This document shows, piece after piece, positions 12,752-64,000 of a stretch of DNA of 64,000 bases (positions within the stretch are counted from its first letter, which is position 1; each line of letters starts with the position of its first letter). The notes beneath the pieces are model-generated. The model did not search any database, was not told the origin of the DNA, and was given only the letters and a program-made list of their open reading frames with translations. The DNA lies in assembly GCA_015680685.1 (NCBI GenBank), contig MNCI01000535.1:93844-157843 (forward strand). The letters are read 5' to 3'. Origin of the DNA: Gnetum montanum. Its lineage: Eukaryota; Plantae; Gnetophyta. The translations under genes and the position numbers were made by a program.

Positions 12752-13270
12752 TTAGCCATGTAGTTGCTTCCTGACCTGATGTGGGTTAGGAAGTGCATAG
12801 GGCCTAGGTAACATGAGGCGGTATTCATCTATACCTTCATCATTGATGCTAAAGGGCAATTCTACCCATAAAGCCTCCTTGGGGAGGGTACTAGCCTCTT
12901 TTGGCTCTTTAGGTGGATCTACTAGACAAGGTTGACTCTTGTCCTCCACGGGTAGTATATCATCAAGGAACTTTACCTTTGACCCTTGGTTTGCATCAAC
13001 GTTGTTGATGGTTGGTGGGATCAAGTTGTCACCATATATGATCACTTCTCCACCCTTGTATGGAAGGTGGATTTTTTGATGAATGGGTGAGGAGATGGCT
13101 GACAATTGGGCTAGCCAAGGACTTCCAAAAATCAAGTTAAATTTAGACATCTCCTTGATGATAATGAATTCGGTCGTATTGGGGAATCGATACCCTATCA
13201 CAAAGGCTATTATGACTATTCCCTTCATGAAAATGCATGACCCATTAATGGACTTGAGGCATGTTGTCTT
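12752..13270 (-). pseudogene. C-terminal half of the Tat aspartic protease plus downstream linker
   Basis: TEFIIIKEMSKFNLIFGSPWLAQLSAISSPIHQKIHLPYKGGEVIIYGD matches the typical Tat protease C-terminal motif. The N-terminal half lies at 23195-23300, on the other side of the nested insertion. Confidence 0.85.
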
Positions 13271-14115
13271 TGATGAGCTACAATATTGGGACTGCAATAT
13301 CACATCTGTGATATTAGGTCCATGATATTGGATCTTGCCAAGCGATATTGGACATCCGATATTGGGACCTATCTCGTTGCCTATAAATAAGAGGCGGGTG
13401 CACTTGGTTTGGAAATTGGTTCTTAATCCCTTACCCAAACTCTTGTAGTTTCTCCCTCTTAGAGTTAGAATTATTTCTAAGTTCCCACAGTAGGAGTCAT
13501 AAAGCAAACAAATCTTTATTCAAGCATTGTGTACTTGAGCACACCTTGTGTTCAAAAATAAAGACGAACTTTGTGATAAATCTTACAACATTCAGAATAG
13601 CTTATCTCTCACCCTTAATGATATTTATAGTTCTTTAATGCTTTCATTAGTTAATTAATGTTGCTTTTATTGATTTTTAAATTTTCACAAGTAAGCACAC
13701 TCAGTACGACCACTTCAAGCATGCATGGAACACTTGGTAACCTTGTAATGATTAACATTTGGTAATCCTAGTAGTGTTGCACTAGTTCAAGATGTGTACA
13801 GAAAGTGGGAAAAAATGTTGGTGTTAGGAATAGTTAGGACCTAGCTAATTAGTTAATTTAAATTAGTTATTCAATTAATTCGCTTCTCCCCTCTTTAGCA
13901 CCAAGACATAAAACATAAAAAGCATATAAATCATATACCTCAAGTTTACTTAACCATACAATCGTGCTATACGATTAAGCTTGGGAAGACAACAATCACC
14001 TAATCCATCTTTGTTCTATGAAGGCACATAAGCACTTAGTCCTTGGAGTTCAACCAAATCACATGTAACACTCATATTCATATGGTTGAGTGTAGGGGTA
14101 CCTTACCACTCATCA
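13271..14115 (+). repeat. 5' LTR of the Athila element
   Basis: High by-eye identity to 22378-23194; contains TATAAATA at ~13382. Confidence 0.92.
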
Positions 14116-14116
14116 T

Positions 14117-14134
14117 TGGTGTCGTTGCTAGGGA
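14117..14134 (+). other. Primer binding site (tRNA-Asp type) of the Athila element
   Basis: TGGTGTCGTTGCTAGGGA versus canonical TGGCGCCGTTGCCGGGGA; all differences are transitions. Confidence 0.85.
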
Positions 14135-14259
14135 ATTTATTGTTTGTGTGCTAATTAGAACTTAGGAATATTCCCATCATTGGAAAGAACCCTTAGGGTT
14201 GGTTATCTTAAAATTATAAGAAAAGAGAAGAGAAAAGTGTCATACATTGAATATTAGTC

Positions 14260-20200: not shown

Positions 20201-20400
20201 GAATTCAAATACCAATTGGGAGATAAGGTTCTTTATTGGAATCCCACACATGTACCACAACGAACTAAATTCAAACGCTATGGGAAGGACCTTATATCAT
20301 TCATGAAACTTTTTCTTTAGGGGCCATGATGATCTACAAATCTTAAAGCCCAAATAAGGAGTTATTGGTTAACATCCAACAAACCAAACCCTTCCATGAG
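14260..20400 (+). pseudogene. Athila gag-pol remnant
   Basis: PR: KALLDSGSGVNLI. RT: VKEEIEQLLKVGFIYPITDSEWVSPLVIVPKK, YSFLDGYSGYNQI, VFMDDFS. RH: DHSAIQFLM..RWLMILQEFD..ENVVADHLSRL. INT: PFDIWGIDFM, FGMPRALISNNGTHF, YHPQANGQAEVTNREI. Start coordinate is approximate. Confidence 0.92.
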
Positions 20401-22135
20401 CCTAAAAAAACTAGTACTAATACTACCTTTGTTGGTGAACAACCTTGCCCATTATTTTGGAACTCTTTCCAATTTAGTCATGGGGGAGATGGCCACCAAT
20501 GCTAACCATTCTAAGCCCTCAGTTCCTTTGCCTTTTTTTGTTTTTTTTTACACATTTTTCATCTTTACTTATTTTTGTTTTACACCATCATTAACATTTT
20601 TACTATTTCTTTGTTTGATTTATTCTTATTCGTCACATAACAACTGCTCACAATGGTGGGTTGTATTATAATAAGTGTTAATTGCTAATGTTTGATTTTT
20701 ACCTTTGACTTTCAATGTTGATGCTAAGATATGGTTTCTTTTGATAAAATAGGCAATGATTCTATGGTCTTCCTTGTTTTGGAAATGTACTATCCCTTTT
20801 CTAAGTAAAATTATTAATGAATTGATGCCTTAGTACTTTTCAAACCAAGAAAAGATTCAAATGGATAGAAAAGGATGTGACCTCAAGGGGATTTGATGCA
20901 TTTGTTCTAGCTATTCTCTTAGGTACTTAGATTTTTTTCATAGGTTTTCCGCCATCCCACTCTTGATCAAATATCAAGGAGCTGACTAAATTAAATAAGT
21001 CTTTGCATGTTGTGGTTCTCACATTAAAAAAAATAAAAGAAAAAAAAAACTATTGAGAATCCAAAGCACACCCCTTAGACATAATAATAAAGAAACATAG
21101 GGTACAAGCACTGGTTATGGCATTGGAAAGACATGTTACCCATGCCTGAAGGTTCCCTCTAACTAAGGTCCTTTCTCACTTCTTGCTTCTTATCTTGTTG
21201 GGATGGTGAAAGCTTTGTGGATGCATTCTTGTTACTTTAGAAGATGCGTTGGTCAAGTGTGTTGATGCATGGTCATTGGATGTGGATAGTTGAATCTAGA
21301 TTTGGACAGAATTTTATTAAGTCACCTTAACCACATATTACACAAGGGACTTTACACCACCTTAATTTTGAGACTCCATCCCATTCTCTCCTCTCTTTCC
21401 ATATTGCTTTCCACATTCCACCTCATTGCCATTTTTATGACGAGTCTATATCTTGGGTGATGCATTATTAGTCTTCGGTAAAACTCTTGTGGGTAAGTCC
21501 TTAACCTTTGTTTTCATATGTCATTCCAAGAGCCTATGGACTCTTCAGTTTGTAGGTTTGTTAGGGAATTCAGGGCATGAGCCTACTTTGGGGAGGATCC
21601 ACTGGCATTCCTTTTTGGTGCAATTGTTAAGATCTTTTCCTTCAACATTTCTCACAATCAACTATTTCTCAATCACCCCATCAATAACATCCATTTTTGC
21701 TTTTGTTTTATTGGCTTCACTATTGTTATTTCTCTTTCTTATTCTTTAAATATTTCCACCCTATTGCTACCAAAGGTTTGCTCTTAGTCATGGGGGCCCT
21801 ATCATAAAGTTTTCCATTACATAATTATCTTACCCCTACACCTTGGGTAGTTATCAGTCATAAACCTCTAACCGAGTATCTGCCATACCCACAACCTAGC
21901 CAATGTGCTTTATATTGAGGCAGGGTATTAGTTGCATTAGGTTTTATCTACCCTTGCTAATCCATGAGTGTGTTGTGTGTGTAGATGGTGATTACATGAA
22001 TAATGGATTGGGATAAGAGGAAGCACTCATGATGGACTGGAGCTAGAGCATTTACACAAGGAACAAGTTTGGACATGTGGCTATGGATGAACAATAGTGT
22101 GCATAGTTTCAACATCGGTAGCAATGCACCTCATT

Positions 22136-22158
22136 TTCTCTCTCTCTCTCTCTCTCTC
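22136..22158. repeat. (CT)n microsatellite
   Basis: Direct observation. Confidence 0.9.
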
Positions 22159-22377
22159 TTCAAGTTGTCAAATGAGAGTTTGGATGTCATCTATGTACAT
22201 TGTTCACCACAATGGACATGAAAAACCAATGCTATAATATATTTGTTGATTCATTCCCCGGGCACTTTGAGTCTATCATCCCATGTCATCGTCAGTTTTA
22301 ATTCAGTCAATAATCCCATACCTTTCCAATATTTTGTAAGGAAATCAAGGATGAGTTTTCATTCAATTGTGGGGGTA

Positions 22378-23194
22378 TGATGAGCTATGATATTAGGGCC
22401 ATGATATCACATCTTGCCAAGTGATATCAGACATCCAATATCGGGACCTATCTCATTGCCTATAAATAAGAGGTGGGTGCACTTGGTTTTGTAATTAGTT
22501 CTTAGTCCCTTACCCAAACTCTTGCAGTTTCTCCCTCTTAGAGTTAGAATTATTTATGAGTGCCCAAAGTAGGAGTCATAAAGCGAACAAATCTTTATTT
22601 GAGCATTATGTACCTAAGCATTCCTTATGTCCAGAAATAAAAACAAACTTTGTGATAAACCTTGCATCATTCAAAATAGCTTATCTCTCACCCTTAATGC
22701 TATTTACAGTTATTTAATGCTTTCATTAGTTAATTAATGTTATTTTTATTGATTTGTTAATTTTCACAAGTAAGAACACTTAGTGCGACCACTTTGAGCA
22801 TGCGTGGAACACTTGGTAACCTAGTAATGATTAGCGTTTGGTAATCCCAGTAGTGTTGCACTCATTTAGGATGTGTACAGAAAGTGGAAATGGATGCTAG
22901 TGTTAGGACTAGTTAGGACCTAGCTGATTAGTTAATTTAAATTAGTTATTTAATTAATTCACTTCTCCCCTCTTTAGCACCAGGACATAAAACATAAAAA
23001 GCATAAAAATCATATACTTCAAGTTTACGTAACCATACAATTGTGCCATATGAATAAGCTTGGAAAGATAATGATCACCTAACCCATTCTTATTTTGTGA
23101 AAGTGCATAAGAACTTAGTCCTTGGAGTTTGATTGGATCATGCATAATGCTCATATTCATATGGTTGAGCGTAGGGATACCTTGCTGCTCATCA
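22378..23194 (+). repeat. 3' LTR of the Athila element
   Basis: Matches 13271-14115; preceded by the PPT-like tract. Confidence 0.92.
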
Positions 23195-26846: not shown

Positions 26847-28505
26847 TATGATGACCAAAAACATTCGTGGTTGGAACACCAAGGGATTCATGGATGCATA
26901 GCCTAACCTCGCCTCTGCACAAGGGCCTTGCTAGGGAATGGAGGTGAACCACCCTAGATGATCTTGTTGATTAGATAGGGACTTTGCTAGTTGCAATTGT
27001 GGTATCAAGAAAAACTAGGGGCTAGCATGGTTACCCAAAAATGTGAGCATTGATGGTATTCTTAGCAATACCAAGGCTAAATAGGCCTGAGTGTAGCAAG
27101 ATCTCACAACATGAGAATGATGGTGCAAGTGTGCAAAAAGCATGTAAAATAATGAAAAAATTGCAAATACGATGTTGAACGTTAAAGAAAATGCTTAAAA
27201 TCAAAAGGAGTTTGGGAGAAAGAAAGGATGATACCACCCCAAATGGGGGCATAGCAATTACAAATGAGATTTGCAGAGGTATGTAGTGGTATAGATAGCT
27301 ATAGTAGTAGCATAGCCAGAGTCTTCATGGTGTCCCAAGGTGGATACTAACATCCACTGCAAGGTCCATGCCTATTAGGTTGGCTACCATGGTGTCCTGT
27401 AGGCTTGTGATGTGCTGTAGTGCTAAGTGGGCTGTAAAGGGGTTGCCAAGATGTTGATATGCTATAGTGTATGAGGTTCTTAAGGTGCTTCAAGTGCCAA
27501 ATGATGCTCTGCGATGCTAATGTCTACTACTAGAATGAAATGCCAACCCCTAGAGTGTGGAATGGAGGGGTATTTATAGGCTTAGATTTAGCATGAAGTG
27601 TGGATTTAGTGCCATGTGGCAAAGGGGTAGGTGCGGTTACACTAACCTTTGGTACATTCCTCATGGGACAATTGGTGCTATGCTTTAGTACACTCCACTA
27701 GACCCCAAGGGACTACCAAACTAGCTACACTACTAAGACTGCATGTGCCAAGACCATAATGTACCTAAAAATAGTGCAAAATAATGCAATTTGGAGGCTA
27801 TGCTCTAGGACTACGTTCTCCCCTCTTTCGAGTGGAATCAAGCATAGATACAATTTTGGGACATAGTGGGAGGTACAAAAAGAGTGCAAGTTTTTTATCC
27901 TTCTTGCTAAAGGAGTGATAAAGTTGGAATGAAGGCCTGTGCTAAGCTCTAGAAGATTTTGAAGGTAGTTTCTTGTTCCTACGCTAGCTACGCTTTGGAT
28001 CATAGCACAATAGTTAGGTAATTCTTGCAAAAATTGAAGTCTAGTGCTACTATGTTTGCTACGCTCATGAGCTTAGTAGGATGGGACAAAGCGTAGCACA
28101 AACACTTAGAGAAATTTGGCAAAAATTGTATTCCTTGTTCTTGCTATGTCAACTATGCTCTAGAGTGGGATAAAGGGTAGCTTCAGGAGTTAGATCTACC
28201 AAACACTTCTTCCATGCTAAGCTAGCTTGACACTAGTGTAAACTGGCCATCGAAGTGTTGCTACACTAGAGAGCATAGCAAGAGGGATGCGAGCGTAACA
28301 AGACTCTTAGAAAAATTTTTGCATCTGCTATTTGAGACTTGGAAAATTTTGCAAATTTGGTTGTGTTCCATGCTACGTTGGCTACACTCTAGAGCATAGC
28401 CCTAGTAGTGGGATCATCGGCCAAACACTTACAAAATTTGCCTTGAGTTGTCACTTAGACAAATTTTCCGTTATAGTGCTGTTGCCTAAATTTGGTGGTG
28501 TTTCA
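26847..28505 (-). repeat. 5' LTR of the Tat-clade element
   Basis: Matches 232-1907. Confidence 0.88.
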
Positions 28506-29585
28506 CCAATTTCTTGAATGACCAAGGTAGTTAACACTAAGTAATGATTAAAATAATGATAAATTAGCTACACTAGGACATCTAGAATAATAGATTGTGA
28601 TTACTTAAGAGTGTTAAAGCCAAAATTTTTCAAAATTAGACCAAAATCCAAGGATTGTTAAGGATAACAATGTCTAAAGATAATGATTAAGACTAATGAT
28701 CAATTATTCATTTGACTACAAAGGACACCTACAAGAGGTTCACATGTAAGTGATCCATCCAAAAAAAGAGAAAATTGACTAAGAGGAGGATGTGGATAAG
28801 GGTGTGAATAACCATAATAAGAACCAAAGGTTACACATGCAATCGAATCCCTCAAGGAAGAGCCCTAAGTAGAATCTATTAGGAAAATTCCTACTATAGA
28901 AATAGGATAATATAGGTAGGATGAAGTGCTTAGGCCTAGGCCAAGTCTTGAAGTCACATTGACTCAGGCTAGCCTAGAAAAGATCAGAACCAAGGAAATC
29001 CAAAGTTCTATCCTAGAAGAACTTAGCTTTGGGCCTTTCTTAGAGTTCACTTCTTAGGAGATCCTTTAAAAACTACAAGCATCATCAATGTAGCCCACCA
29101 TTTCTACCAATGAAAAATGGTACCTTGGTGAGATGTATCTCCTCTGAAATAATTGTTAGGAATATGTAACTATTAAGATTAAGGATATCATTATTTCTTA
29201 TTTGGTGGAGGCCATTGCAAGGGCTTTGGTACTCCCAAATATGGGACCTAAGCTTACAAAAGTGTCTATGTAATTTAATGCTAAAAGTAAAAAGGAGTGG
29301 ACCCAAAGGTGTTATGGAGTTTATCAAAAGTAGTATAGTGTGCTCACCTAGGGGAAAATGATCGATTTCAAGATCACAATGTACCACCTATGTGGAAATG
29401 ATACAAAAATTTAAAAAATCATTTAATAAATAGATTGTATCCACTTATATAAAGCAATAATTTAATTATATTATATAAATCATAAAATAAAAAATCATTT
29501 ATTGATACACATGAAAACTTTAAATAAATAATTAAATGTATGCAAAATATTAGGTCATGACACCTAGTCATTGCTTACCAAGATA

Positions 29586-38830: not shown

Positions 38831-40199
38831 GCACTTTTGTATCCAATGGCCAAGTCTCCTTTTAAAAATAAATAAAATCAACTTTACTTAACTAATCTTA
38901 TATGACATGTGACATGTTCAAGTTGTCATTACTAAGCTTGCATGATCATTCATGTTTAACCAAGTTGGTGTACTCATTGTGAAGTAGCCAGGTTGGTGTG
39001 ATCAAGTTGGCTAAACTAGGCTAGCAAGAAAGAATACAAAAAAAATATTGAATGAAAGAAATCTTAACTAAGATATAAAGAAATCTAGTGAAAATATTGG
39101 GAGAAATAAAATATAAAGACAAAATTATAGAAGAATATGTTGGGAACAAGCAACAATCACACAGAGGAAGGGAAAAGAAAAGAAGAAAAAACAAAAATGC
39201 TAAAAAGTAAATAAGATTATGATATTATTTACTGGTACTTAAGTATGACTGTTAGCTATCCTCTTAACCAAAATTATTTATCTCTATGATCCACATCAAA
39301 AAGGCTTACCTAAACAATAATATTTCAATTTCAATTTCATATATATCTATATGTAGCATTATCATTGACTCGATCTAACATGGTGACCCTTTTAACCAAA
39401 TAGGTTATTTGAATGTAATGTTTAACATGTCTACTATGATGCTTGAAACTTATGTTCTATATATAAAACTTGTATATACTACATCTATTAATACTTTCTA
39501 AGGTAGAGAGCACCAAGAATCATACAAGAGAGTCATGTACATGAACAAAAAATCCAAGAAGTGTAGAAAAGTTAAATTCATCCTCAAGATACTTTTTATT
39601 ATTGAATATGATTTTTGGATATATTTTCCATAATGAATTATATCTTACATGTAGCAACTATCTATAAATTGCACCAAATTTGGCAAATCTTGGACCAAAT
39701 TGCTCAAAGTATGAAAGGTTTGAATTGACATTTTATAGGACCCTAGAGGTAGCAATCTTAAATGTCCATCTTGATATAATTACAAACAAATTAGTACGAC
39801 AGATATATCATTCTATCAATTCTATGTGATTACATATTAATGAGAACTTGAGAGAGCTATCCATGGTTAGTTTAATGATGAGTGATAGTACAATGCGAGT
39901 TTTAGCAACTACTCGCAAAGTTCCAGGTTTTCAAAAGAAAATGGCTCACCTGCAACCCACAAGAACCGAGATGAAATTTTGACTATTTTAAAGGGTTGTA
40001 AATGGTGAATATTTGAAATGACACAGGTTGACCTAAGTTTTGACTAAGTCTTTCACTAAATCCCAATTCATTTTCTAAAAAGATAGTGACTTATAAAGTC
40101 CAAGTCTCATAAATACAAAAGACTAAAAACACTTAGAGATTAGCCTAAAGAAAATGCTTGAGCCTTGTTGCAAGTGTGATCCAAAATGAGAGACCAATT

Positions 40200-40507
40200 G
40201 TAGATTCCTATAGTTGATCTAGCATTAGTTGCCACAACTGCTACATTTGACATCATGGGCAACATTGGCACATATGCCTTTGCAATAGTCAGTTGCAAAC
40301 TTGCACTTATTATCACACATTTTGCAATTCTTGTTATTTGAAAAAATGTCTATGTACTTGTCATGGTAGGTTTCTTTTTTCTTTACTTCATTTTCTTGAA
40401 AGATTATGGCATTGAGGAGGACAAAAGAGGTAACTTCTTGCATGTACCATAAAAACCACATCTAGCATTGAGGCCATTGTTACCACAAACATGATTCTTT
40501 GCAACAT
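40200..40507 (-). pseudogene. STIG1-family cysteine-rich protein pseudogene (copy A)
   Basis: ATG at 40507 starts MLQRIMFVVTMASML (signal-like). After a stop and frameshift comes DIFSNNKNCKMCDNKCKFATDYCKGICANVAHDVKCSSCGN*, which aligns with the intact gene. Confidence 0.8.
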
Positions 40508-47340: not shown

Positions 47341-48830
47341 AACGAAAACATCTAAAACATGAAATATCACAAGCTTAAATATACAATTTATTTTTAACAT
47401 CCATCCAATATGAAACATCCATAATCTTAAATAACATATATTCTAATACAATGCATTACCAACAATGAAAATAATCATATTTAGCATTTAACAAACCATC
47501 GTATCATCTAATTCTTAGCAGCAAGAAATAAGCCTACTATAGCACAGCAAGTACATAAAGGTCCATAGTACACGCATCATGAATCATGACAAAAGTCATA
47601 AATGAAAGCATAGATCTGAAGCATGATAGAAAATAGTCTATGCATAGGGTGCACCAACTACACTAGGAATATCAAGACCTGAAATAAGAAGAGGAGTTAG
47701 TATAAAACTAAGTGAGATCCCTTGGCATCTTACCCACAATTATGAATTTCAAGGGTCTTGTTTCAGAGTTTTTTCTTTCACTAGCTTGTTGCAAAATGTT
47801 TTTCTTTTAGAAACTTTTCTTTTTTACACCTTATTTAATTCCTTGGCACCCTACATCTATTCAACTATATTTCTATTACCAAGTTTCTATTTAAGTAATT
47901 TTATCTCATTTTTGCTCACATTCAAGATATTTCTAGGTTGCGACAACGCTAGCATGTTGATGAATATATATTTCTCGATTTTATTGTTATTAGGTTGTAG
48001 GTAATTTTGATTTTTAACACTATTTTCCTTTCATACGATATGTAGATAGCTACAAATAGATTCTCATGAATATGATAATCTTACATACATGGATGAAAAA
48101 GACTCTATTTTGCACTTGTAGGGAATGAATGAGTTTGTTATTGGAATGTATTAGCAAGTGTGCTATGCTTAAATCTCTTTAGCTACAGTATTCTTACGGT
48201 TTTTATATCTATCAATTTGGGCCTATTTGTTGATTGTTGTCCATCTTCTATGTTAATCTTATAGAAATATGAGTTTGTTTAGCCATTATGTTCCATAGAA
48301 AGTTCTAACATTTTGAGATAGCTTGTTTCCTTTTTTATTTTAAAAAATGTAGCACAATGTGACTTGCCATGTGAACTACAATAGTAGATTATAAGGTTTC
48401 CAAGAAGGGAACAATATTTGGTCTTTTTGGCAAGGATGTTGCAACAACTTTTGAATTAACTCCATGTATGTGTAGTACAAGGCTGGAATATCTACACCTC
48501 TTTAACTCCAAACTTTGACATATGTACAACTCCAAATTATTCATTATTGCTTTCAATATTAATTAATTTGCGTACGTTAATTACCAAATATCAAAGAAAA
48601 ATAGGGACATGAGTAAGGGTTGAACTTTTGTGACTGAAACTTCTGACACACTCATAGCATTTTTTCAAAAAATTTGAATGATTTAATACAAACATAGTTG
48701 CTACTTTAGCACATATTAATTCTTATTTTTGATAATAAGTTTGGAATATACTAATCTAAATTTTTTTTTGAGAGAATGTTCAGGTTTGTATTACTAAAAG
48801 TTATGGTACACAAGTAAACAATTACAATGG

Positions 48831-48874
48831 NNNNNNNNNNNNNNNNNNNNNNNNNNNNNNNNNNNNNNNNNNNN
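48831..48874. other. Assembly gap hiding the LINE 3' end
   Basis: 44 N. Confidence 0.99.
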
Positions 48875-48921
48875 GGCAGAAGGCGACAGGCACACCGAGG
48901 CCGTTCCAGCTCATGAAGCAG

Positions 48922-49119
48922 GTCCAGTGTGGCGCGATGTTCCTCGGTGTCCATGAAGTTCGCGACTTGTTGGATGCCCTGCATAGTAGCCTCCCTCCTG
49001 CTTCGGTCAGTCGACGAGTCCCCTGCATCAGGGTGGAATCTAGCGGACGTGCGTCTGATGTGTCGTCTGAGCTCCCCCTAGGAGCTCTCACAACTAATGC
49101 CCAAAATGCTATATGGGCA
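48922..49119 (-). pseudogene. DnaJ/Hsp40 J-domain at the end of the LINE coding region
   Basis: Manual translation: CPYSILGISCESS*GELRRHIRRTSARFHPDAGDSSTDRSRREATMQGIQQVANFMDTEEHRATLD. HPD at 49035-49027; single TAG (likely from CAG) at 49080-49078. Confidence 0.8.
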
Positions 49120-49134
49120 ACGCCCCCCCCCCCC

Positions 49135-49490
49135 TGAGCCACTGATGGGCACTGTGTACATGTGCCTGGTCAAGTTGTCGTTGTCATTGCTCCTCCTCCT
49201 CCCTCAGGCGCTCCTGCTCCTTCCGGGCCACCGCCTCCTGGGCTTGACGAGCCGCCTCTTACTGGCGCAGCTCCTCCCTGATTCGGTCCTGGAGCTCATC
49301 AATGAGCTGGGCCCACGAGGTCTCCATCATGAGCGTGTGCTGCTGGCTCAGCTGTTGTGCCTATTCATGAAGCTGGGCATCGTGATCGGCGCGCCACTGA
49401 GCCAGGGTCTCGGTCCACTTTGCCTCCGAAATATGTCGCTCGGCCTCCCGAGCAGCAGCAACCACCTATTGCATTTTCACCTCCCAATTT
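49135..49490 (-). pseudogene. Coiled-coil segment of the LINE extension
   Basis: NWEVKMQ*VVAAAREAERHISEAKWTETLAQWRADHDAQLHE*AQQLSQQHTLMMETSWAQLIDELQDRIREELRQ*EAARQAQEAVARKEQERLREEEEQ*QRQLDQAH; every stop is one C>T away from Gln or Arg. Confidence 0.75.
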
Positions 49491-49679
49491 GGGGGGGCGC
49501 TGGGGGGGTTAGGCGAGGGGGGGGGGGGTTTTTGACGAGAGCGGCTTCCCCGGGTGAGATTCAAAGTGGTCTACCGCTGTTGAGTGGCCGGGGCGAGGGA
49601 AATCGGGGTGGTGGGGGGGCATCAGTGAGGCGACCCCCAGGGGGGGCAGAGGATGGGCCAGGAGCCCCCTGCCCCTTCG

Positions 49680-50229
49680 CCCCCCTCCACAAAGCCAAAA
49701 TTAACCCTGAGTGGTGCCCATGCCGTTTATGGCAGAGGGCCTCAAGGAAGAACTGTGGCAGGTTAACCTGGGTGCCATCCTTCAAGCACCTCAAGAAGGT
49801 GAAATGCAACCCCTGGAGCTTGGACACGTTGCCCGACTGGACGAAAAAACGTTCCACCAAGGCAGCCGCGCAAGCCTAGAGGCGCGGGAGGGAAGACCAA
49901 GGGACTTGGCAGCTCTGCATTCTCAGGGTTAACCCCTCGAAAAAGGTTGCAGAGTTTTGGAGGCCGCGGGACGTCGGCAGGATGACCTCACCAGTGGTCG
50001 GGACTCCCAAATAGCTGGCCAGGGCGGCTTCCGTGAGCCGAATTGCACGGCCACGAAAGAAATTTTGATCACCGTGCCAGTTAGTAAAGAACGTGTTGTC
50101 AGGAAGGTCAGGGTCCCCGACCAGCCTCTGCAGCAGGTCGGCCCAGCCGCACTGGCAGACCATCTTCCAGAATTCTGCGTCATCCTGGTAGACGACGCAG
50201 TTAGGTTCATACGTCGGCGTCGTTCCCAT
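49680..50229 (-). pseudogene. 'Putative plant transposon protein' (PF20167/Athila-ORF1-like) domain in the LINE extension
   Basis: FWKMVCQCGWADLL..TFFTNW..FRGRAIRLTEAALASYLGVPTTGE..LPRL*ACAAALVERFFVQSGNVSKLQGLHFTFLRCLKDGTQVNLPQFFLEAL..HSGLILALW. Track ORFs 49876..50343 and 49561..49860 are the same frame, split by one TAG. Confidence 0.65.
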
Positions 50230-53200
50230 GGTGTCCGCAAGCTTGTGCCACGCTCTGCAGGTCTGCAGGATAAGTCGCTTGGGGGGGGGGGGGTTGTTGC
50301 CTGCGCAAGGACCGTGCAATTCCGCACCTTCCAGGCGTGCCATAACGGCAACGCCGACCAGGAGTCACCATTAAATCGTCGCGGGGGGCATCCTGCACGC
50401 GTACCAAGTGGCGATCATGCAAGGGTAGTCGTAAATGAAGTGGGTGAGCGTTTCGGAGCTAGTTCCGCAGCGCGAACACGTGGTGTCATGTGTGATGTCA
50501 CGTTGCTATAGTACGGCGCGTACGGGGAGCGCCGCAGACTTTATCTGCCAGAGGAACATTTTGACTTTCTCGGGAAGTTGCCCACGCCAGATCTCCTGCC
50601 AGCCGTCCTCCGGGGAAAATTTTTACGTCAGGATGGCCCGCGGCTTGAGGTGGATCCAGCCTAGGCACACCATCTCCCGCACTTGCCGACAGATGGTCTG
50701 CCAAGGGCGCGAAGCGTGCAGTCCAGGCTGCCAAGGCGTGTATTTCCGGCAGGCGATGCAGGCCCACTAGCTGCGCTCCCCCATCGCACGTGTCAGTCGG
50801 TGGACGAGCCGTTGTTATCCCATCGTGCATTCATCTTCGAAAGTTGTGACCCCCAAGCCCCCCACCTGACAAGGACGGGCGACGCGGTGCCAGTTTACAA
50901 GGTGAAGCTTGCTCCCCCCTTTGCCCCCCCACCAAATGAAGCCATGGATCATGGCATTGATTTGGTGAATTATGGCCGAGGGGGGCACGGCGACCGCCGC
51001 CACAAAGTGTGCAGTGGCCGCGAGGATCCCGGTAGCCACGAGGAGGTGGCCCTTGCGGGTAAGAAAACGATTTGCCCAGTGGTATATGCGCTTCTCGAGT
51101 TTGGCCAGGAGGGGAGTCCAAGTATTGTTCCGTCCCCATTGGAGCAGCGGGATACCAAGGTAGGTATCGATGAGTTTGCCAGATTGAATGTTCAGGATTT
51201 GTGTAACCCAGTGCTGCACCTGCGGGTCCACATTGATGAAGTACGCCGCCGACTTTGTGCGGTTGATTTCCAATCCTAATTCGACGGCCAATCTGGTCAG
51301 GGCCAGGTTGATACACCGTGCCTGAGGGGCCACCGCTGGGCTGAGAAGCATGGTATCGTCGGCGTAGTGTTCAACACGGTAAGCCACCCCCACAATGTCC
51401 AGGCCCTCCACCCCCGAGGTATGAGGTCCATGGCAATGATGAACAGCAAGGGGGACAGGGGGTCGCCTTGCCTCAGTCCACGACTAGGGGAGGAAAAGCC
51501 CCACAACCGCCCACCCACGTCAAAGGAGAACCTTGCGAAGGACTGGATATGCAGACATAATTGGATAAAACCAGGGTCAAAGCCTTTCTTATGCATGATG
51601 TCATGTAAGGCGTTCCAACTAAGCGTATCGTATGCCTTAGCTATGTCTAGCTTGAGACATAGACCAGGAAACCCCGTAGTACAGAGGGAATGAAGGACCT
51701 CTTGCATAAGAAGAACCTGATCCTAAAGGGTCCTACCATGAACAAAGCCCACCTGATTACGTCCAACCAACTTAGGCAAGAGGGGTCCCAGACGATTGAC
51801 CAGGAGTTTGGAGAAGACGCGAATGAGAACATTGCATACACCAATGGGACAAAAGTGCTATGGGTGGTGTGCATTCAACTATTTTGGGATGCAGATGATG
51901 CACGAGCAGTTGAGTTCGCGCTGTACCTATCGTCTGGCCAGCATGACGTTGAAAGCATCCAAAATATTGGGCCCCACAACATTCAAGAAAGCTCTGAAGA
52001 ACTCCAGTGACCAACCGTCCGGCCCAGGCGCTTTACTACCTGGCATGTTGTTGCTGGTGTTAGTCAATTCTGTCACCGAGAAGGGGGCCAGTAGAAGTTG
52101 ATTGTCCGCAGCAGTGAGCACCTTGGCCACATGGACGGAGATGGGCTGGGTGGGGTGCTTGGTCAAAATGCACCTCCAATAATGTGAGAGCTCGTTGGCA
52201 ATCCCCTATGGGTCTTCAACCACCACCCCAGCCTAAGTACAGAGGCCACGGATGTGGGTTTCACCACACGTCTTAGCCATGCCGAAGAAGAATTTCATAT
52301 GTCGGTCCCCCTCGCGGAGCCATCTAATCCGGGATCGCTGCCACCAATAGGTCTCCTCCTCGTGATCAAGACTCTGGAGTTGATGGAGAAGAAGCATCTC
52401 CTCTGAGTGCAGGTCCTCCTCAGTCTCTTGTCGCGCCTGGATGTGTCCGAGCCGCTCCTGAACCGTCTTGTGGCCAGTACAAAACAAAAACTTCTCCCCC
52501 ACCGGGAGGGCCCGGATGACCCACTTGAGCCGAAGGAGAGCATCTTTGAGGAAGCTCCGAGGGTCCATCCGACCTGGCTGGTAATCAGCTCAAATGTCCT
52601 CCACCAAAGGGAGAAGCCACGGTTTGGTCAGCCATGTGGTCTCGAACCAAAATGGGTGTGGGGCCCGGGGTTGAGGTGGGCCAATGGACACGACCAGCGA
52701 GCGGTGGTCAGAAGCAACCCGCTCCTGCCCAGTCACGTTGATGGCGGTGCCGAGGAGGAGAGTAGAGCTAACGCAAACTTGATCAATGCGGGAGAGGACA
52801 CGGTGCACCCCTTTCCACCGGTTGCTCCAGGTGAAACAACAATTCACAATGGGCAGATCAACAAGAGAAGAGCGCTCAAGGAACTCCATGAAATCTGGCA
52901 TGCCTGGAGGGGGGGGCGGCCCCCCAGATTTCTCCCAAGGGTACACACACTGGTTGAAGTCACCAACAACCACCCAGGAGCCGTGATCAGGCACCAGCAA
53001 GGCCACTCGATTCAACTCGTGAAGCCGTGATTCCCAAGCCTGCGCCCCATAGAAGTTGGTCAGCCAAAAACCATGGGCAGGAACGTGGACCGTGATGGTC
53101 CACGGGGAGGCATCCACCAGAGTGGTGGTGGGGCATGCAAGAATGGCTAGGCCTCCAGCCCGGCCCTGGCTGGGGTGTAGGTGGGTGGTCCAGCCCGTCC

Positions 53201-53344
53201 ACTGGAGGTGACTAGATTCCACGGCCTGTAGCTTGGTTTCCTGAAGGTAGACCATATCACAATTCTCCTCTCTGACAATACGGCGCAGGGTATTTCGTTT
53301 ATAGGGGGTACTCTGCCCCTGCAGTTTCAACTGAAAATCTTCAT
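50230..53344 (-). pseudogene. LINE ORF2 core: APE endonuclease, reverse transcriptase, zf-RVT
   Basis: Starts MKIFS*NCRG at 53344. EN: LQETK, WVVVGDFN, FTWSN, SRIDQV, SDH, PFWFETTW. RT: KAPGPDG, KLDIAKAYDTLSW, GLRQGDPLSPLLF, YADD, YLGIP, GGLGV. zf-RVT: WQEIWRGQLPEKVKMFLW..CSRCGTSSETLTH, followed by LWHAWKVRN. Confidence 0.96.
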
Positions 53345-55033
53345 GCGCAACCAGAGGTGTGGCGTTGGTAGACCTCCCGTAAGGTTTGTTGTTGACCCAA
53401 GTCGATGTGTCGTTGGGCTTGTCGACTTCTAGACTGGGACTCCGTCGGGCGGCCTGGGCGCCCCTCCCCCTCGCGGACCACAGGAGTGCAGCCAGCTACC
53501 TCAGCTGGGGACTGCGACGCCTTGTGCTGTCGGGTCCGGGTGCTCCTCCGAATGACGTTGACCCATTCTCCCAGCGGGGGAAGCACTGGTTCTGGTTCGG
53601 GTGGGTGTGGTTGGTGAGTGGTGGCTGGTGATTGGGAGCGGTGGGGAGTCTTGGCGGGGGACCTGTGGGTGGTAGTNNNNNNNNNNNNNNNNNNNNNNNN
53701 NNNNNNNNNNNNNNNNNNNNNNNNNNNNNNNNNNNNNNNNNNNNNNNNNNNNNNNNNNNNNNNNNNNNNNNNNNNNNNNNNNNNNNNNNNNNNNNNNNNN
53801 NNNNNNNNNNNNNNNNNNNNNNNNNNNNNNNNNNNNNNNNNNNNNNNNNNNNNNNNNNNNNNNNNNNNNNNNNNNNNNNNNNNNNNNNNNNNNNNNNNNN
53901 NNNNNNNNNNNNNNNNNNNNNNNNNNNNNNNNNNNNNNNNNNNNNNNNNNNNNNNNNNNNNNNNNNNNNNNNNNNNNNNNNNNNNNNNNNNNNNNNNNNN
54001 NNNNNNNNNNNNNNNNNNNNNNNNNGAGGGGGCCTTGGGGGGCGTGGGTGTGTGTGCGGGGGCATGGGGGGGATGGGTGGTTGGGTGGGGGGCGCAGGCG
54101 TCCCTTACGGCCCCTGGTGACATAGTTTCCCTCCTCGAAAAGCTGGCGGGCCAGGTTATTCGATCGGGGCCTGCGAAATCGACAATTTGCCTTGCGATGG
54201 CTCGGCTTACCATAGCACCCGCAGCCATCAAGCTGGTCCGTCCGGGGGGCCGCGCCATGCAGCGTATGATCCGTAGTGTCCATGTTTTCATAGGTAATTT
54301 GGAGGGATTCCTCCCCCCCTGGGAGTTCCAAGAAGACCTCCCGGACGAAGTCGGTCGCCGCCAGGGTTCGCCAGACACAGAAACGGGAAAAGCCCATCTG
54401 TTCCAGCGACCTTGTGACCCTGTCGAAGGCGATGAACTCACCGAAGTGTCCCGTCACCTCCTGCAAGAACTCAAGACTCCATAGCTCCCACGGGATGTCG
54501 GCCACCTGGATCCAGACTGGGGCACGGGTAAACAGATCGGGTTCTCTGTGGGCACCGGGGTGCCAGGGGGTCAAAGCGAGGCCACGGGCCCCATAGAACC
54601 AAGGCCCGCCGAGAAGAAAGGAGTTGCAAGCCTGCAAGGAGGGGAGGACAAAGAGGAGCAGATCCTCCGAGAGGCTCCGGACAGTAACGTCCTCGATTTT
54701 CCACTGCTCCTTAACCCAACGGCAAATCAGGTCAAGCCGAGGACGACTCCCCCAGGAGATGAAGCGGCCGATGAGGCTTCGTTCCATGGTATGAACGCCT
54801 TCGGTAGGGGGGTGGCAGATGCGAAGGCGTAGGGTGTTCTCGGAATAGGAATGAGCTGCGATGGTTCCTCCAGTGGCTGCGGCCGCCATGGCATCCGTCG
54901 CCGCGGTCGTGGTCTCAGGGGGCACTATCCCAGTGGTCGCTATCGCCGTAGTCGCTACCGTGGTTGCTACATCCGCCGAGGTTGCCACTGCCGTGGTTGC
55001 TGCAACGGTTGCCACTGCCGTGGTTGCTGCCAC
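53341..55033 (-). pseudogene. LINE ORF1 (DUF4283/RRM-like region plus degenerate zinc knuckle), interrupted by a gap
   Basis: SLIGRF..WVKEQW..LLFVL..GGPWFY..LTPWHP..PVWIQVADIPWELWS..FSRFCV..ITYEN; knuckle CGCYGKPSHRKANC (second Cys changed to Tyr). The C-terminal part (EWVNVIRR..SGCA*) ends at TGA 53343-53341. True start uncertain. Confidence 0.92.
53677..54025. other. Assembly gap in the low-complexity Pro/His-rich part of ORF1
   Basis: Run of N. Confidence 0.99.
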
Positions 55034-55085
55034 CGTGGTTGCGGCCGCCGTGGTTGCTGCCGTGGTTGCTGCCGCCGTGGTTGCT
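54940..55085 (-). repeat. 12-15 bp tandem units (GCCGTGGTTGCT) at the LINE 5' end
   Basis: About 8-10 variants of (GCC)GCCGTGGTTGCT, most regular at the terminus. Confidence 0.85.
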
Positions 55086-56041
55086 CACATCATACGTTTA
55101 CAAAAGTGATGATCACTAATCTAAAATTTTACTTTACATTCACTAAAATGATTTTCTGTTTATGGCACTCATTTTAGAATTATTTTTACATAATTTCTTC
55201 AAATCGTATCCATTAGAATTGAACCTGTGACTTCAGCATATACCAAAATTAGAGAGGTAGGCAAGAATTTTTATATTCTGTGGATTTAAACTATTTTATC
55301 TTATCTTGATAGACTTCAATCGGGAGCTTAGTCATTCTCACTGTCTGGTCGAAAGAAATCATTTGTAAATGTAACTTTTTAAAAGGTATTCATGCATCCT
55401 TGAAAACAACAATATGTCATTGTTCATAATTTAAAAGCTAGCAGACAATAAAAAATTTTAAATTATGGGTTATTGATACAGCATTATAGTTATAACACTA
55501 GAAGCATATGAGGTAAAAGGTATTACATGCATTAAATATGCAGATGATGAAGGACTTGCTGAAGATATTATTCTATTTGAAATTACTTATCTAAAACCAA
55601 GTGAAAAACATGTACCTGAGTTCTCTCTTGATGTAATTGATTTGCAGTTATCAAGGAGTGCTATATAAAACATATTTCTCGGAGGTGGAGGCTTTTCTTG
55701 CGTTTCCTCGAGTGAAATTGTATCACAAAGGGTTAATAACATCTATGTAAGAACATGCTTGTTTCTCGGTTGAAATTTCATATTGATGTGACGCTTATAT
55801 ATCCACCCCATGTTCCTTAGGACCAAGATAATTGCTATAGCTGATTAATTCATTGCATAAAAAAGTACATGCTTGTTGGACTTGGTAATAATAGAACATA
55901 TGTGGGAGGAAGTGCTATACACAACGAGGTAATAGGGTCAGTGAATGATATGTTTTTAGTAAGGAAAACATATATATTTCATTTAGATTTTTAAAGTTTA
56001 AAAGCATGTACTTATTAAATATATTGATTGCAACTCTTTCA

Positions 56042-56591: not shown

Positions 56592-56963
56592 TCAGGCATA
56601 GGAGCACATGCCATAGACACAGAGAGATCCGCTGCTGCAGCGATTGCTGCAGTGGCCGCAGTTGTTGATGTCATCGGCAAGGTTGGTGCAGATGCCGTTG
56701 CAGCAGGTGGTTGGAAACTTGCACTTCTCACCGCACATTCCACAATTCTTATTATCGGAGAGAAGGTCCACGCACTTGTTGTGGCAGCATGAGTCGGGGG
56801 CGCACACGCTAGGATTCCTGTTGCATTTCAAATTCTTCGTGGAAGCATATTCCCCAAGCAATCCGCTCAGAGAGGGCGAGGATGATGGATTGGGATCAGG
56901 ATTGGCCATTGAAGACACTATTGCTACCAAAAATGCAACCACAACAATCATCTTTGGCAGCAT
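56592..56963 (-). CDS. Stigma-specific STIG1-family secreted cysteine-rich protein (123 aa, single exon, intact)
   Basis: Hydrophobic signal peptide (MIVVVAFLVAIVSSMA) followed by the STIG1 Cys pattern CC.NKCVDLLSD.KNCG.CG.KC....CC.G.C.NL..D..NCG.C...C..G..C.YGMCSYA*. No disruptions, CpGs retained, upstream TATA box. Confidence 0.93.
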   Translation of the reverse strand: MLPKMIVVVAFLVAIVSSMANPDPNPSSSPSLSGLLGEYASTKNLKCNRNPSVCAPDSCCHNKCVDLLSDNKNCGMCGEKCKFPTTCCNGICTNLADDINNCGHCSNRCSSGSLCVYGMCSYA

Positions 56964-57088
56964 TTTGGGAGTTGATGATCTTGAACGTGGATTGGTCTTG
57001 TGGATTCCGAGACGGTTTATGGGAAGTTGGGAATACAGAAATCTGGGAGCAGGGAAGAAATGCCAATGCAGAGATGGTGAATTTCAGC

Positions 57089-58179: not shown

Positions 58180-60799
58180 TCAAGCATTTGCAAAATGAAG
58201 AATACCTGCATCAATGTCTGATTGCAGAAATGTAGGCATGGAAAGTTGTGACAAGGGCACATGAACAAAGACTTTCGTGCACCATCATGGAAAAGAACCG
58301 TAATAATGAAGCAATGCAAAAATTTAATTATGATAGAATTAGCTGTACAATGTTTAAAAATTGTATTTCTAATAATGGTATTCATGCTGAATTACAGCTA
58401 TTTCACGGTGGATCATATTCATTTGAGATGTTAATCTACAAATGCCTTATCCATGTTGTTTCTCTTTTACTAGAACATGTTTGCCACAATTTTTCTTCCA
58501 TTGTTTAACTCAACATTGCGCATGAATGAGTCTCTTGACATTGGTTTAACTCTAGAATTTTTTTGAGTTTACAGTCTAATTGTTGGTTAGCTCATGATGG
58601 AATGAGAATTTAATATCATTCCAAACAAAATGATGTATGACTTTTAANATTCCTATATTTTTTTTTCTCTTGCCTTGGAATTCTTTTATTATATGCTACA
58701 GTCAGTTTTAGTGCTTTTGTAGCTATGTATTAAGGTTCTCATTGTCGATTTATCTTTGTACGATTCATTTTAAAGTAATTATCATAGAGCCTTTTGGTGT
58801 TTTCCTATCTATTCAGTTCTTTGATTATGTCTGTGGTTTTATCAGGCAAAGGCCATGGATATACCTTGGAATGTTTGTAACATCTACCAAAATTGATAAG
58901 AAGGAAGATATAACTACAACTATAGAAGATGAGGATGCTCGTCCATCAGCATACCCATCGTAATTGCTAGATAATGTCCTGATAGCGACAAAGCATGAGA
59001 AGGAGGAAATATTGTTAAGAGACATTTCTCAAGTGGGAAGAGAAGCAAAGATTAATATTCATAATTTTTCCTAAAACATAGTGATGCCTTGAGTATGTCT
59101 GGAATCAACAATATCCTACATACAAACCCAAACAATGAGCTCACCACTTTAGCTACTTTTTAGAAGCACTTTAACTTCCTCTAACAACCATTCAAACTAC
59201 TTCTAACAACCATTGTTATATCAATCTCTTTTTAGAAGTTTGTTTGTTTGTTTGTTTTTTACTTTGTCTTTGGCCTTCTTTGATTTGTTTCTCCTTGTTT
59301 ATTTTTTTCATTTTTTTTGTGATCTTGTTTTCTATTTTTATAGCTTTTAGAACATTTCCCTAGCATGATTCAGAAGACTTACGCTAGCTATCCTAATCAA
59401 CTTACTATAGTTAACATGACATACTCATACTAATGTGATCAACTTAGCCTAACTAGGTTAACATGATTAAGGAAGCCTAACTAGGTTGACATGATTAAGA
59501 TAGCATAATCAAGATGACATAATCAACTTTACTTAACCAAGATTGTATGACATGTGACATGTTCAAGTTGTCTTTGCTAAGCTTGCATGATCATTCAAGT
59601 TTAACCAAGTTGGTGTACTCATTGTCAAGCAACCAGGTTGGTGTGATCAAGTTGGCTAAACTAGGCTAGCTAGAAAGAATACAAAAAAAATATTGAACAA
59701 AAGAAATCTTAACTAGAACATAAAAAAATATAGCAAAAATATTGGGAGAAATAAAATATAAAGAAAACATTATAGAAGAATACGTTGGGAACAAGCTAGA
59801 GTCGCAAGGAGGAAGGGAAAAGAAAAGAAGCAAAAACAAAAATGCTAAAAAGTAAAGAAGATTATGATATTATTTATTGGTACTTAAGTACGACTGTTAG
59901 CTAGCCTCTTAACCAAAATTATTTATCTCTACGATCCACATTGAAAAGGCTGACCTAAGCAATAAGATTTCAATTTCAATTTCATCTATATCTATATATT
60001 AATTCATGGTGACCCTTTTAACCAAATAGGTGACTTGAGAACGTAATGTTTACCATGCCTACTATCATGCCTGAAACTTACATTCTATAACTCTTATCTA
60101 CTACATCTATTAATACTTTCTAAGGTAGAGAGCACCAGGAATCCTACAAGAGACTCATGTATATGAACAACAAATCCAAGAAGTGTAGAAACATTAAATG
60201 AATCCTCAAGTTACTTTTTATTATTGAATATGATTTTTGGATATATTTCCCATAATGGAGGTTATATCTTACATGCAGCAACTATCTATAAACTGCCGCC
60301 AATTTGGCAAATCTTGGACCAAATTGCTCAAAGTATGAATGGCCTGAATCGAACTTTTATACGATCCTAGAGGTAGCAATCCTAAATGCCCATCTTGATA
60401 TAATTACAAACGAGTTAGTACAGTAGATATATCATTCTATCAATTCTATGTGATTACATATTGATGAGAACCAGAGAGAGATAGCCATGGTTACTTTAAT
60501 GATGAGTGATAGTGCAATGCGAGGTTTTCAAAAGAAAATGGCTCACTTGCAAACCACAAGAGCCGAGATGAAATTTCAAATATTTTAAAGGGTTGTAAAT
60601 GGTGAAAATTTAAAATGACACAGGTTGACCCGTTGACTGAGTCGTTCACTGAATCCCAATTCATTTTCAGAAAAGCTAGTGACTTGCAAAGTCTAAGTCT
60701 CCTAAATACGCAAGACTGAAAACTCTCAGAGATCAGCCCAAAGAAAATGCTTGAGCCTTGTTGCAAGTGTGATTCAAAATGAGATACCAATAGTAGAGT

Positions 60800-61097
60800 C
60801 CTGCAGTTGATCTGACATCGGTTGCCACAGCTACTACATTTGACGTCATGGGAAACAATGGCACAGATGCCTTTGCAACAGTGGGTTGCAAACTTGCACT
60901 TATTACCACACCTTCTACAATTCTTGTTATTTGAAAAGAGGTCCGTGTATTTGTCATGGTAGGTTTTTTTTTTCACTTCTTTTTCTTCAAAGAGTATGGC
61001 ATTTAGGAAGACAAAAGAGGTAACTTCTTGCATGTCCCATAAAAGTGGCATCCAGCATTGAGGCCATTGCTACCACAAACATGATTCTTTGCAACAT
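60800..61097 (-). pseudogene. STIG1-family pseudogene (copy B)
   Basis: ATG at 61097 starts MLQRIMFVVAMASML; stop and frameshift around an A-run; then DLFSNNKNCRRCGNKCKFATHCCKGICAIVSHDVKCSSCGNRC. Lacks the YGMC.YA ending. Confidence 0.8.
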
Positions 61098-62309
61098 TTT
61101 AAGTAGCTATGGTTCAACAATTTTTTGTTGGATAGAAAAGCCAGAAAAACATGTATTAATCTAACAATACAAATATACAAAAAAAATTGTCACATCCCCA
61201 AAAATCGTATTTAGAAAATTAGTTGTAACTAAACTATTCATGGTGCATGATAAATAAAATTTAATCACTTGGAAAATGTTTATGTTTGTTAACACTTATA
61301 AATATAGCCATATAAAAAGACCACTTGAAACTTAGTAATGTAAAATTACTTGAGAAATCCACATCAGCACATTTATACCCAAATAGGTCTCATTACAACG
61401 TATCATCAAAATTTAATAAAAAATCTAAATTTATGTCCAAAAAATTACATAATCTATTGAATAGCCAAAAACATAAAATGAAATATAACAAAAATTAATC
61501 TTAAGCTAATGTTAATCCTTCATCCAACTTCTCTTTGTCCACCTCCAAAGCTTCTTGCTAAATGTGCATACAACACATGTAAGAACAGTAAGAACACATT
61601 CACAGTAACTAAAATCCACCTTGAAACTTCTTGAAGAAGATTGAAAGTTAGGGATATTGTTGCAAGGTACACTGTTAAAAGCAATAACAATTACAAATTA
61701 ACGTATTTGTTAATTAATACCATTAACACTACTATTAATATCTATAATTAACCCATGAATTACCATAGGATCCCCTAGTATTCCTATAAGGTTTACAACA
61801 TCAAATGTTTAGAATGACTATAACGTTGATACTATTTTAACTAGATACCAATGACTGTGTGATGTAATATCTCACTTATGTAAGCTAACCTCATGTATGA
61901 AAATGTTCAACTACTGGATACAACCCCCAAGCAATGTCGATTTTTAACTGTTGGATTACATTATGACTAATGTCAACCCTATGATTATCCTACATCCTAG
62001 TTCCTCACTACCTTCCTAAATAAGGTCTATTATTACCTACAACATTATTAAATTAATCAATTACTCTGAAATCAACCTAAATGACCAACCAACCATTTCC
62101 ATACTAGTTTTCGTCTTCCATTAGGTTGAAAGGAAACTCAATCTAAATGACTAATCAAACTAATATCAATACTCCATAGCCTAAGAAAGATCCATCCATG
62201 GATTTGCCTATAATCAAACATACTAATGCTTGACCTATCTTCTTGAAGTTGTGATATGGAAGATCGTTGCATTCAAGTTGCCCTTCCAAAGTTATATGAT
62301 GTAGGAGTT

Positions 62310-64000
62310 TGATGAGGAGCTCCTATGGATTCCACAATTCAAGCACTCTGAAAGTTACGAAATAGAAAATTTGAAAAAGAAAAGGAAAATGAAAGCTTTA
62401 TTCTTGGTCAAATGGAGAATTTACATATGAAAGGAAGCATACATTCCCAAGGATAGATAAGGGATTTAAACAAACTCTTACACACTAAAACAAAGTAATC
62501 ACACACAGACAAGGATGATGATCAAGGCACCTTTTCGAGACTCTATCTCTTGTTTTACTCTTCTCTCAACTCCCTAGATTGTCTCTTGACTGAAATGAAG
62601 GTCCAAGGGCTCTATTTATATCCTTCTCCCCTATCTCTTCATCTTTCCTCTTTAACTTCAAGATTTAACTCTTTAAAAACTCATATAAAATCATCTCATG
62701 TCTATATGGGACATCTCAGAGGAGAATGTGAAGTCTCACCTTGGTGTAGGGACACCTCTTTCGATCCCCTTGTTCTACCCTACATTCTATGTGTTTTTTT
62801 GTTGATTTTTTTGAGGATGATTCTTGGGTATTTTGGCATGTTTGGAAGTGTTTCTGGCTTTGTTTGATACGTTTAGGAGGTTCCAGGATGTATGGGGACT
62901 TGTTGGGAGGTGTCTAGAGGCTCCCAGCATCAAAAGGAGCACTTTTATTTTTGGAACCTTCAAAAGAGACGTCTGCCTAGAAAGATAGATGTCTTCCCAA
63001 AGACATCTCCCATAAAGACTGGACATCTACAAAAAATAGTACACATCTTTCCTGAAAGCATGGATTTCACAGTAGACATCCTAGCAAAGATAGAGATGAC
63101 CTAGACATATGGGAAAACTTCCAAAAACATTGTTCCAATTCAAGAAATAGCCAATGAATTATAAAAATAATTGAGGAGAAGGTGAGACGAATTGGGAAAG
63201 AGTTGCAGAACCTCAAGCTTAGTTGAGGAAAGGTTTCTAGGGTTTTTACCTTCTAGTTGCTTATAAATATTAATGTAATCTATAGTGCCAAGTACCATAG
63301 TGCCAAGTGACGAAGTGCAAACAATGAAGGCCAAATATCCCAATAGAGGGTAAGAGAGAGAGAGCTCTTAAGGGAAGAGAGATTGTGCAAGGAAGTTAAG
63401 TGAGAGGCAAGGAAGAGCACTTGAGAGAGATTAGGAGAATCTCTTATAAGAGTCTTATCTTGACCTTGGGCTCCATTGTGAGTAATTAAGGATTGAAAGA
63501 GGACAAGTGTCGCCTCTAAGATCCTTGGGAGAGTTATGCGTTGAGCTTGGCTCCTCATCTTTGATGTAGTTTCTATGTATTTTAAGAATTATCTTAATAT
63601 AAAGGAGGCTTTCTCTATTTTATTGTGTTATTCTTATTTTCGAAGCTAGATCTGCTTAGAGTTGTGGATTGGGTCCTATTGGGGTATATTGAGGTGCAAC
63701 CCTTGCACCACACTTGAAGGCGGTCGTTAATAGCTGGGATGTCCTAAAATCATGTGGGATGTCTTAACTAGGATGTCTCAAGTCTAGCTGGGACATTCTA
63801 AATGTAGTTGGAATATCTCACCTACGATTGCGATATCTCACTTGCAACTGGGATGTCTCACCTTCCAAGACAAAACACAAAAATTCTCATTTTAATGTTT
63901 GAAATCTTTGAACATCTCCAAACAAGTTGTCATAGCCCCTGGAACCCCCTAAACACATTAAAATAATTCCAAAACACTACCAAACAAGCTAAAACTCTAC
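62310..64000 (-). mobile_element. Left LTR of the non-autonomous LTR element in duplication copy B (incomplete in window)
   Basis: Starts TGATGAGGAGCTCCTATGGATTCCACAAT, matching TGATGACGAGCTCCCATGGATTCCACAAT at 44016. Confidence 0.78.
62745..63712 (+). mobile_element. Solo LTR (copy B)
   Basis: TGTAGG...CCACA with TSD CTTGG / CTTGA. Confidence 0.78.

Follow-up and report, generated by a model that had tools for sequence, protein, structure and literature searches.

The 64,000-nucleotide window of Gnetum montanum DNA analysed here (contig MNCI01000535.1, positions 93,844 to 157,843) contains a full-length LINE of the plant L1 type in which an additional domain of about 185 residues lies behind the reverse transcriptase (RT), in the position where other plant L1s carry RNase H. 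The add-on is real, selected and present across the LINE family, and it is followed by what is likely a helical third ORF. A cross-class origin of the domain, from LTR elements, is plausible, though unproven.

Organization of the LINE

The window is in general AT-rich plant repeat DNA (GC 26-46%). Over 48875-55100 the GC content is 52-61%, with a lower reading in the 53-54 kb bin because of an N gap, and it is even across the LINE (Table 1) against 30-38% outside. The 11-mer of the target-site duplication (TSD) has two matches in the window versus 0.09 expected, and two were seen in 1 of 100 shuffles. Since the TSD pair and the A9 run mark its two ends, we take the element to extend over 48761-55114 and to be full length. 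They also enclose the domain, which is thus inside the LINE as an earlier reading of the sequence alone had claimed.

The ORF2 domains recognised by Pfam are in the order AP endonuclease, RT and zf-RVT, as in plant L1-type LINEs, and the closest of 21 loci fetched with the RT is the plant-L1-type element L001 (33% over 350 aa). As a control we used L001 (219-5412 of a metagenome contig), an RNase H-bearing plant L1 that is nearly intact. The copy in the window is dead, with many stops and with frameshifts, several of them at G/C runs. One of the frame changes is in the RT between QGDPLSP and YADD (51400-51430, minus) and is apparently due to a short deletion in this copy. The distance from the GGLG motif of the thumb to zf-RVT (50640-50820, minus) is about 75 codons versus well over 150 in L001, which either characterises the family or reflects a deletion in the window copy.

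Table 1. Features of the LINE and its flanks, in window coordinates
Feature	Coordinates	Strand	Remarks
TSD, 3'-end copy	48750-48760		11 bp; exact match to 55115-55125
LINE, full-length, plant L1-type	48761-55114	minus	6354 bp including 393 N; DUF4283, endonuclease, RT, zf-RVT
Poly(A) tail, A9	48761-48769	minus	directly abuts TSD; read from sequence
3' UTR, AT-rich	48770-48830	minus	read from sequence
Assembly gap (N)	48831-48874		between 3' UTR and coding part
3' tail, frame ambiguous	48875-49110	minus	behind C12 run 49123-49134; may continue helical frame
Helical frame, E/Q/R/A-rich	49112-49474	minus	about 110-120 aa; four stops in window copy; likely third ORF
Pro-rich stretch	49480-49680	minus	31% Pro in domain frame; G/C runs; stop at 49561-49563
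Extra domain	49681-50229	minus	183 aa (about 185); one stop at 49876-49878; no membrane helix
Predicted terminal helix of ORF2	50230-50274	minus	frame of domain, no stop between; by eye like the helix after WHVRN in L001
G13 run	50281-50293		frame switch in window copy
WxxWKxRN motif (WHAWKVRN)	50319-50342	minus	from translation; other frame than domain in window copy
zf-RVT	50404-50613	minus	PF13966, E 4.8e-13
RT core	51238-51851	minus	PF00078, E 2.3e-18; YADD piece E 0.017; two frames, stops
AP-type endonuclease	52704-53318	minus	PF03372, E 1.2e-9
Assembly gap (N)	53677-54025		hides 3' part of ORF1
ORF1, DUF4283	54374-54739	minus	PF14111, E 3.2e-21
15-bp tandem repeat, GC-rich	54973-55085		7.9 copies; 5' end of element; TRF
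TSD, 5'-end copy	55115-55125		11 bp; identical to 48750-48760

The extra domain and its junction with ORF2

All six of the motifs that had been attributed to the domain are present, in the order given and in a single minus-strand frame interrupted by one stop: GWADLL, FFTN, RGRAIRLTEAALASYLGVPTTG, SGNVSKL, LRCLKDGTQVNLPQFFLEAL and GLILALW. GC at codon positions 1, 2 and 3 is 0.56, 0.45 and 0.72 in the domain and 0.60, 0.43 and 0.68 in the thumb. The contrast seen in the domain was reached in none of 5000 shuffles, the same is true for each of its halves separately, and the frame is of the coding type. The domain had also been called globular-looking, which its single-sequence AlphaFold model does not bear out (pLDDT only 35). 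The highest 19-residue Kyte-Doolittle mean is 1.02, and this lack of a transmembrane helix sets the domain apart from env-like membrane proteins.

Other copies of the element differ from the window at 49734 and 49721, where the majority base makes the end of the domain more basic; this would suit a nuclear signal. Seventeen differences with a share of at least 50%, among 40 of the 216 difference rows, were scored for silent changes, of which there are 6 in the domain frame and 7 and 5 in the other two. Such a lack of codon bias is as expected for decay and is no evidence for the frame. The 40 rows do not include the stops at 49876-49878 and 49561-49563, either of which may be private to the window copy.

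The placement of the domain directly behind the zf-RVT and WxxWKxRN end of ORF2 stands, but needs correcting as to frame: zf-RVT is upstream and, like the thumb, in the frame of the domain, but WHAWKVRN, which sits between a G6 run at 50383-50388 and the G13 run, is in a different one. Among the contigs listed, five cross the G13 run, and they are 2, 2, 3, 4 and 7 nt shorter than the window; the positions of these gaps are not stated, and long G runs slip in decayed copies. A net gap of 2, as in two of the five (one with only 20 letters on one side), opens the frame from WxxWKxRN into the domain. From these frames, an in-frame fusion of the domain to ORF2 appears moderately likely.

The position of RNase H

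In L001 the RVT_3/RNase H domain (E 2.7e-23) follows zf-RVT, WHVRN and a helix, and the extra domain occupies the corresponding slot in the window element. The absence of RNase H from the LINE, remarked on earlier, is borne out: there is no RVT_3 or RNase_H Pfam match in the element, and a DG-type RNase H motif has no match in any of the three frames of 48875-50400. The domain itself has no likeness to the RNase H of L001 (best blastp E 1.0). That the domain takes the place of RNase H is supported.

RVT_3/RNH is listed as an add-on of plant L1s in Table S10 of PMC5203782, where it is sometimes in a separate third ORF and where species with RVT_1 only, and neither add-on, also appear. The RNase H-bearing plant L1s of that table, and L001, resemble the window LINE in having an ORF1 with DUF4283, an ORF2 with EN, RT, zf-RVT and WxxWxxRN, and an add-on behind the terminal helix. 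The window LINE departs from them in carrying an add-on other than RNase H, behind which come a Pro-rich stretch and a long helical frame.

The domain in other copies and in transcribed relatives

Contigs from four DNA runs (four organism labels, three studies; 7,749-14,165 contigs each) were mapped to 48875-53676, and each run covers 30 of 30 bins of this region. At least six contigs span position 50250 with at least 31 letters on each side, with examples in all four runs; these were counted among the 32 pieces listed, beyond which there are 48,603 further pieces. The six differ from the window by 23-37 letters and therefore represent other copies. Of the contig joints, none of the five in one set and none of the 15 listed of 27 in another falls at 50200-50300, and none of the 20 direct and 25 inverted repeat families listed places a long repeat inside 48761-55114. 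An independent LTR-element fragment, with a break near 50230, had been named as the finding that would speak against a domain within the LINE; it was looked for and not found, as contigs bridge the junction and show no joint there. On the same grounds an LTR-element fragment nested in the LINE is largely refuted, its supposed junction being bridged by other copies in four of four runs.

Two poly(A) RNA runs yielded 271 and 153 mapped reads, of which 268 and all 153 align only partly, most at less than 90% likeness. Near-identical transcripts (at least 95%) account for 2 of 271 and 0 of 153 reads; the 75 reads of a third run (X14) consist mostly of poly-G ends and are uninformative. The reads stack on the two strongest motifs, at about 49800-49860 and 50105-50155. 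Three loose-end cells of the partial reads were translated by hand in the domain frame. The one at 49811 has 7 of 9 residues identical. The one at 49859 has 6 of 9, with a sense codon at the stop of the window copy and 8 of its 12 letter differences at third positions, and the one at 50155 has conservative changes only. Because these loose ends read as the same or similar residues, we conclude that diverged relatives, which may be LINEs or LTR elements, carry the domain, retain its residues and are transcribed, and that the domain is under constraint in them. Taken with the TSD and A9, the coding frame and the bridging copies, these relatives make the domain a feature of the LINE family and not an abutting LTR fragment.

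The helical frame

Behind the domain and the Pro-rich stretch is a frame that had escaped the sequence-only reading. Its GC contrast (0.78, 0.37 and 0.71) was reached in none of 5000 shuffles, its AF2 model is all helix (mean pLDDT 90.6) with breaks at X residues, and where it has a stop at 49261 the other copies have a sense codon, in all four runs. It is likely a third ORF. Its frame differs from that of the domain, and its ATG at 49474 lies 2 nt behind the TGA of the domain frame (49477-49479), an arrangement that makes 49474-49479 a candidate termination-reinitiation site. At least four of the contigs listed cross the G runs at 49491-49528 with net gaps of 0, 3, 6 and 9, and one crosses 49553-49761 with a net gap of 0, so the frame offset is likely ancestral. 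Large hydrophobic residues make up at most 26% of heptad positions a and d, and given this weak enrichment 'long helix' is a safer description than 'coiled coil'. The 48875-49110 segment has no Pfam match, and its translations and GC contrast are equivocal.

Identity of the domain

A PF20167-like identity had been proposed for the domain, with PF03078 and PF10536 as further profiles to compare, and hmmscan returned no match to these three or to PF04195, either for the whole domain or for its parts (E up to 1, and up to 10 with filters that drop most matches above 0.1; the query is one decayed copy). A DA_N match (E 0.05-0.3) is far below the cut-off and was discarded. Protein homologue searches were empty, as was the same search with the ordinary thumb region, so these blanks are weak; a PDB sequence search gave a best E of 1.6. 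The domain was found in none of 179 candidate stretches from metagenomes and none of 30 from viruses, none of the 21 loci fetched with the RT has a domain match at E up to 1, and Athila-type elements with reference extra ORFs were found in 0 of 12 viral contigs. The order and rough spacing of the motifs (GW, FF.N, RG..I.L....LG.P, GN.S, L.CL..G..VNLP, GLI) nonetheless agree with what we take to be the pattern of PF20167-type extra ORFs, and from this likeness we regard homology to them as probable.

The ORF at 10613-11311 (+), whose segment 10619-11310 had been suggested as a comparator, did not serve as one: blastp to the domain gives E 1.0, and it is absent from the tblastn and phmmer matches. 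It is coding-like (0 of 5000 shuffles) with no meaningful Pfam match. We note that it lies antisense to a minus-strand gypsy pol (5120-7377) and is neighboured by an array of 28-bp tandem repeats (12080-12496). On inspection by eye it resembles the PMD-type extra ORFs that Tat elements carry in antisense, and its place between protease-like and RT pieces suggests nesting or rearrangement.

The extra ORFs of Athila and Tat elements are described as carrying PF20167 (Transposase_32), PF03078, PMD-CC or Tr28 (PMC11728184, PMC4408406, PMC7264820), with a domain-plus-coiled-coil layout in those of Tat (PMC4408406). They have no known function, and an envelope-like role for them has long been debated (PMC7264820, PMC4408406). 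They resemble the window domain in having a soluble domain of about 180 aa, flanking helices or a coiled coil, and membership in a high-copy family that retains it. The window domain differs in that it is part of a non-LTR element, is in sense and likely fused to the polymerase, and has no profile match. The plant mobile domain (PMD, PF10536), common to Gypsy, MULE and host MAIN/MAIL1 (PMC5418596), is a precedent for an accessory domain that moves between element classes and is tied to silencing, but the window domain has no PF10536 match, and the element carriers named in PMC5418596 are Gypsy and MULE, not LINEs. A foreign domain fixed at the end of ORF2 is also described for the insect R1/TRAS LINEs, in which a viral SF1 helicase at the C-terminus is proposed to counter silencing (PMC4686597); there, unlike in the window LINE, the add-on is a recognisable viral enzyme, and both clade and host are different.

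Proposed origin and possible role

That a high-copy plant LINE lineage with diverged, transcribed relatives took a PF20167-type domain and a long helix from LTR elements, and fused the domain to its RT in place of RNase H, is in our view about evenly balanced. A progenitor would have acquired the domain and helical frame from LTR-element RNA by template switching during reverse transcription, after which they became fixed. The fuller interpretation that we prefer, still tentatively, is of a full-length plant L1-type LINE from a family whose add-on of about 185 aa, in the RNase H position and likely fused to ORF2, would be a PF20167-type, nuclear and non-enzymatic module acting on chromatin or against silencing. 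LINEs have no virus-like particle, capsid, envelope or integrase, so the role of the domain has to be sought in the RNP, at chromatin or in countering silencing. As part of ORF2 it would be brought into the nucleus in the RNP of the element and would be at hand at the target site, as a chromatin or anti-silencing accessory carried in cis, and the helical product could be an oligomerising partner. This nuclear reading draws on analogy with a sunflower Athila 14 ORF that bears PF20167 and is predicted to be nuclear (PMC11728184), and with PMD, a different family from that of the window domain: PMD proteins of the host take part in silencing, and an anti-silencing role has been proposed for the PMD that TEs carry (PMC5418596).

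A competing possibility, to which we give a minor but real share of belief, is that the domain is a selected LINE module unrelated to the PF20167 proteins, either a new family or a captured host domain, and that the motif likeness is pattern-matching. The lack of a Pfam match up to E 10 with filters, the poor PDB score and the failure to retrieve a homologue are what it would predict, but the motif blocks, six in all, follow the order that we take to be typical of PF20167-type proteins, the thumb control is equally blank, and a decayed copy lowers sensitivity. Slightly less probable is that the domain is a separate third ORF that starts from the ATG at 50229 by re-initiation or C-run slip and yields a free accessory like those of LTR elements. 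The domain does begin with an ATG, some plant RVT_3 domains have a third ORF to themselves (PMC5203782 Table S10), and the net gaps of 3, 4 and 7 in three of the five contigs over the G13 run give no fusion frame; against this, the stretch resembling a terminal helix is in the frame of the domain with no stop, this frame is common to thumb and zf-RVT, and G runs of such length are prone to change in copies that have decayed.

It is improbable that the domain replaces RNase H in function, by binding or processing the RNA-DNA hybrid during target-primed reverse transcription. It does lie in the slot held by RVT_3 in L001, but it has neither profile nor motif of RNase H and no likeness to that of L001, and many plant L1s in PMC5203782 Table S10 have neither add-on. 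Least probable by far is that an LTR-element fragment inserted into or next to a single LINE copy, or that the domain is a neutral passenger of 3' transduction. The gap at 48831-48874 separates the domain from the 3' end, and it is the scaffold that connects domain and tail, but the TSD pairs across this gap and GC is even over the element. Moreover, other copies bridge the junction in all four runs, diverged relatives retain the residues, and the repeat families listed include no long repeat.

If the module was indeed taken over from LTR elements, it would meet a requirement that LTR and non-LTR elements share, with roles in capsid, envelope or integrase excluded and chromatin or silencing indicated. 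Selective retention of this domain by a LINE, as a part tethered to its ORF2, would narrow the old question of its function to roles that the two classes have in common, of which entry into the nucleus, contact with chromatin and avoidance of silencing are examples. Should the homology not hold, a selected add-on to ORF2 and a likely third ORF such as these have no counterpart for a plant L1 family in the literature surveyed; no published report of a LINE with such a domain was found in the literature searched, whose coverage lacks most subscription journals and Repbase reports.

Other features of the window

A gypsy element that is Athila-like by eye lies at 13306-22684 (+) between direct repeats 13306-13605 and 22385-22684 (87%), and by eye there is no readable or usable extra ORF behind its pol. 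It appears to be nested in a minus-strand element bounded by repeats at 234-1908 and 26849-28506. At 1.5 kb from the 5' end of the LINE there is an intact-looking STIG1-like gene (56592-57002, minus; PF04885 E 9.3e-24). A Cys-rich remnant that looks similar to it is present at 40140-40461, inside a block of about 4 kb that is repeated at 59521-63999 (about 90%).
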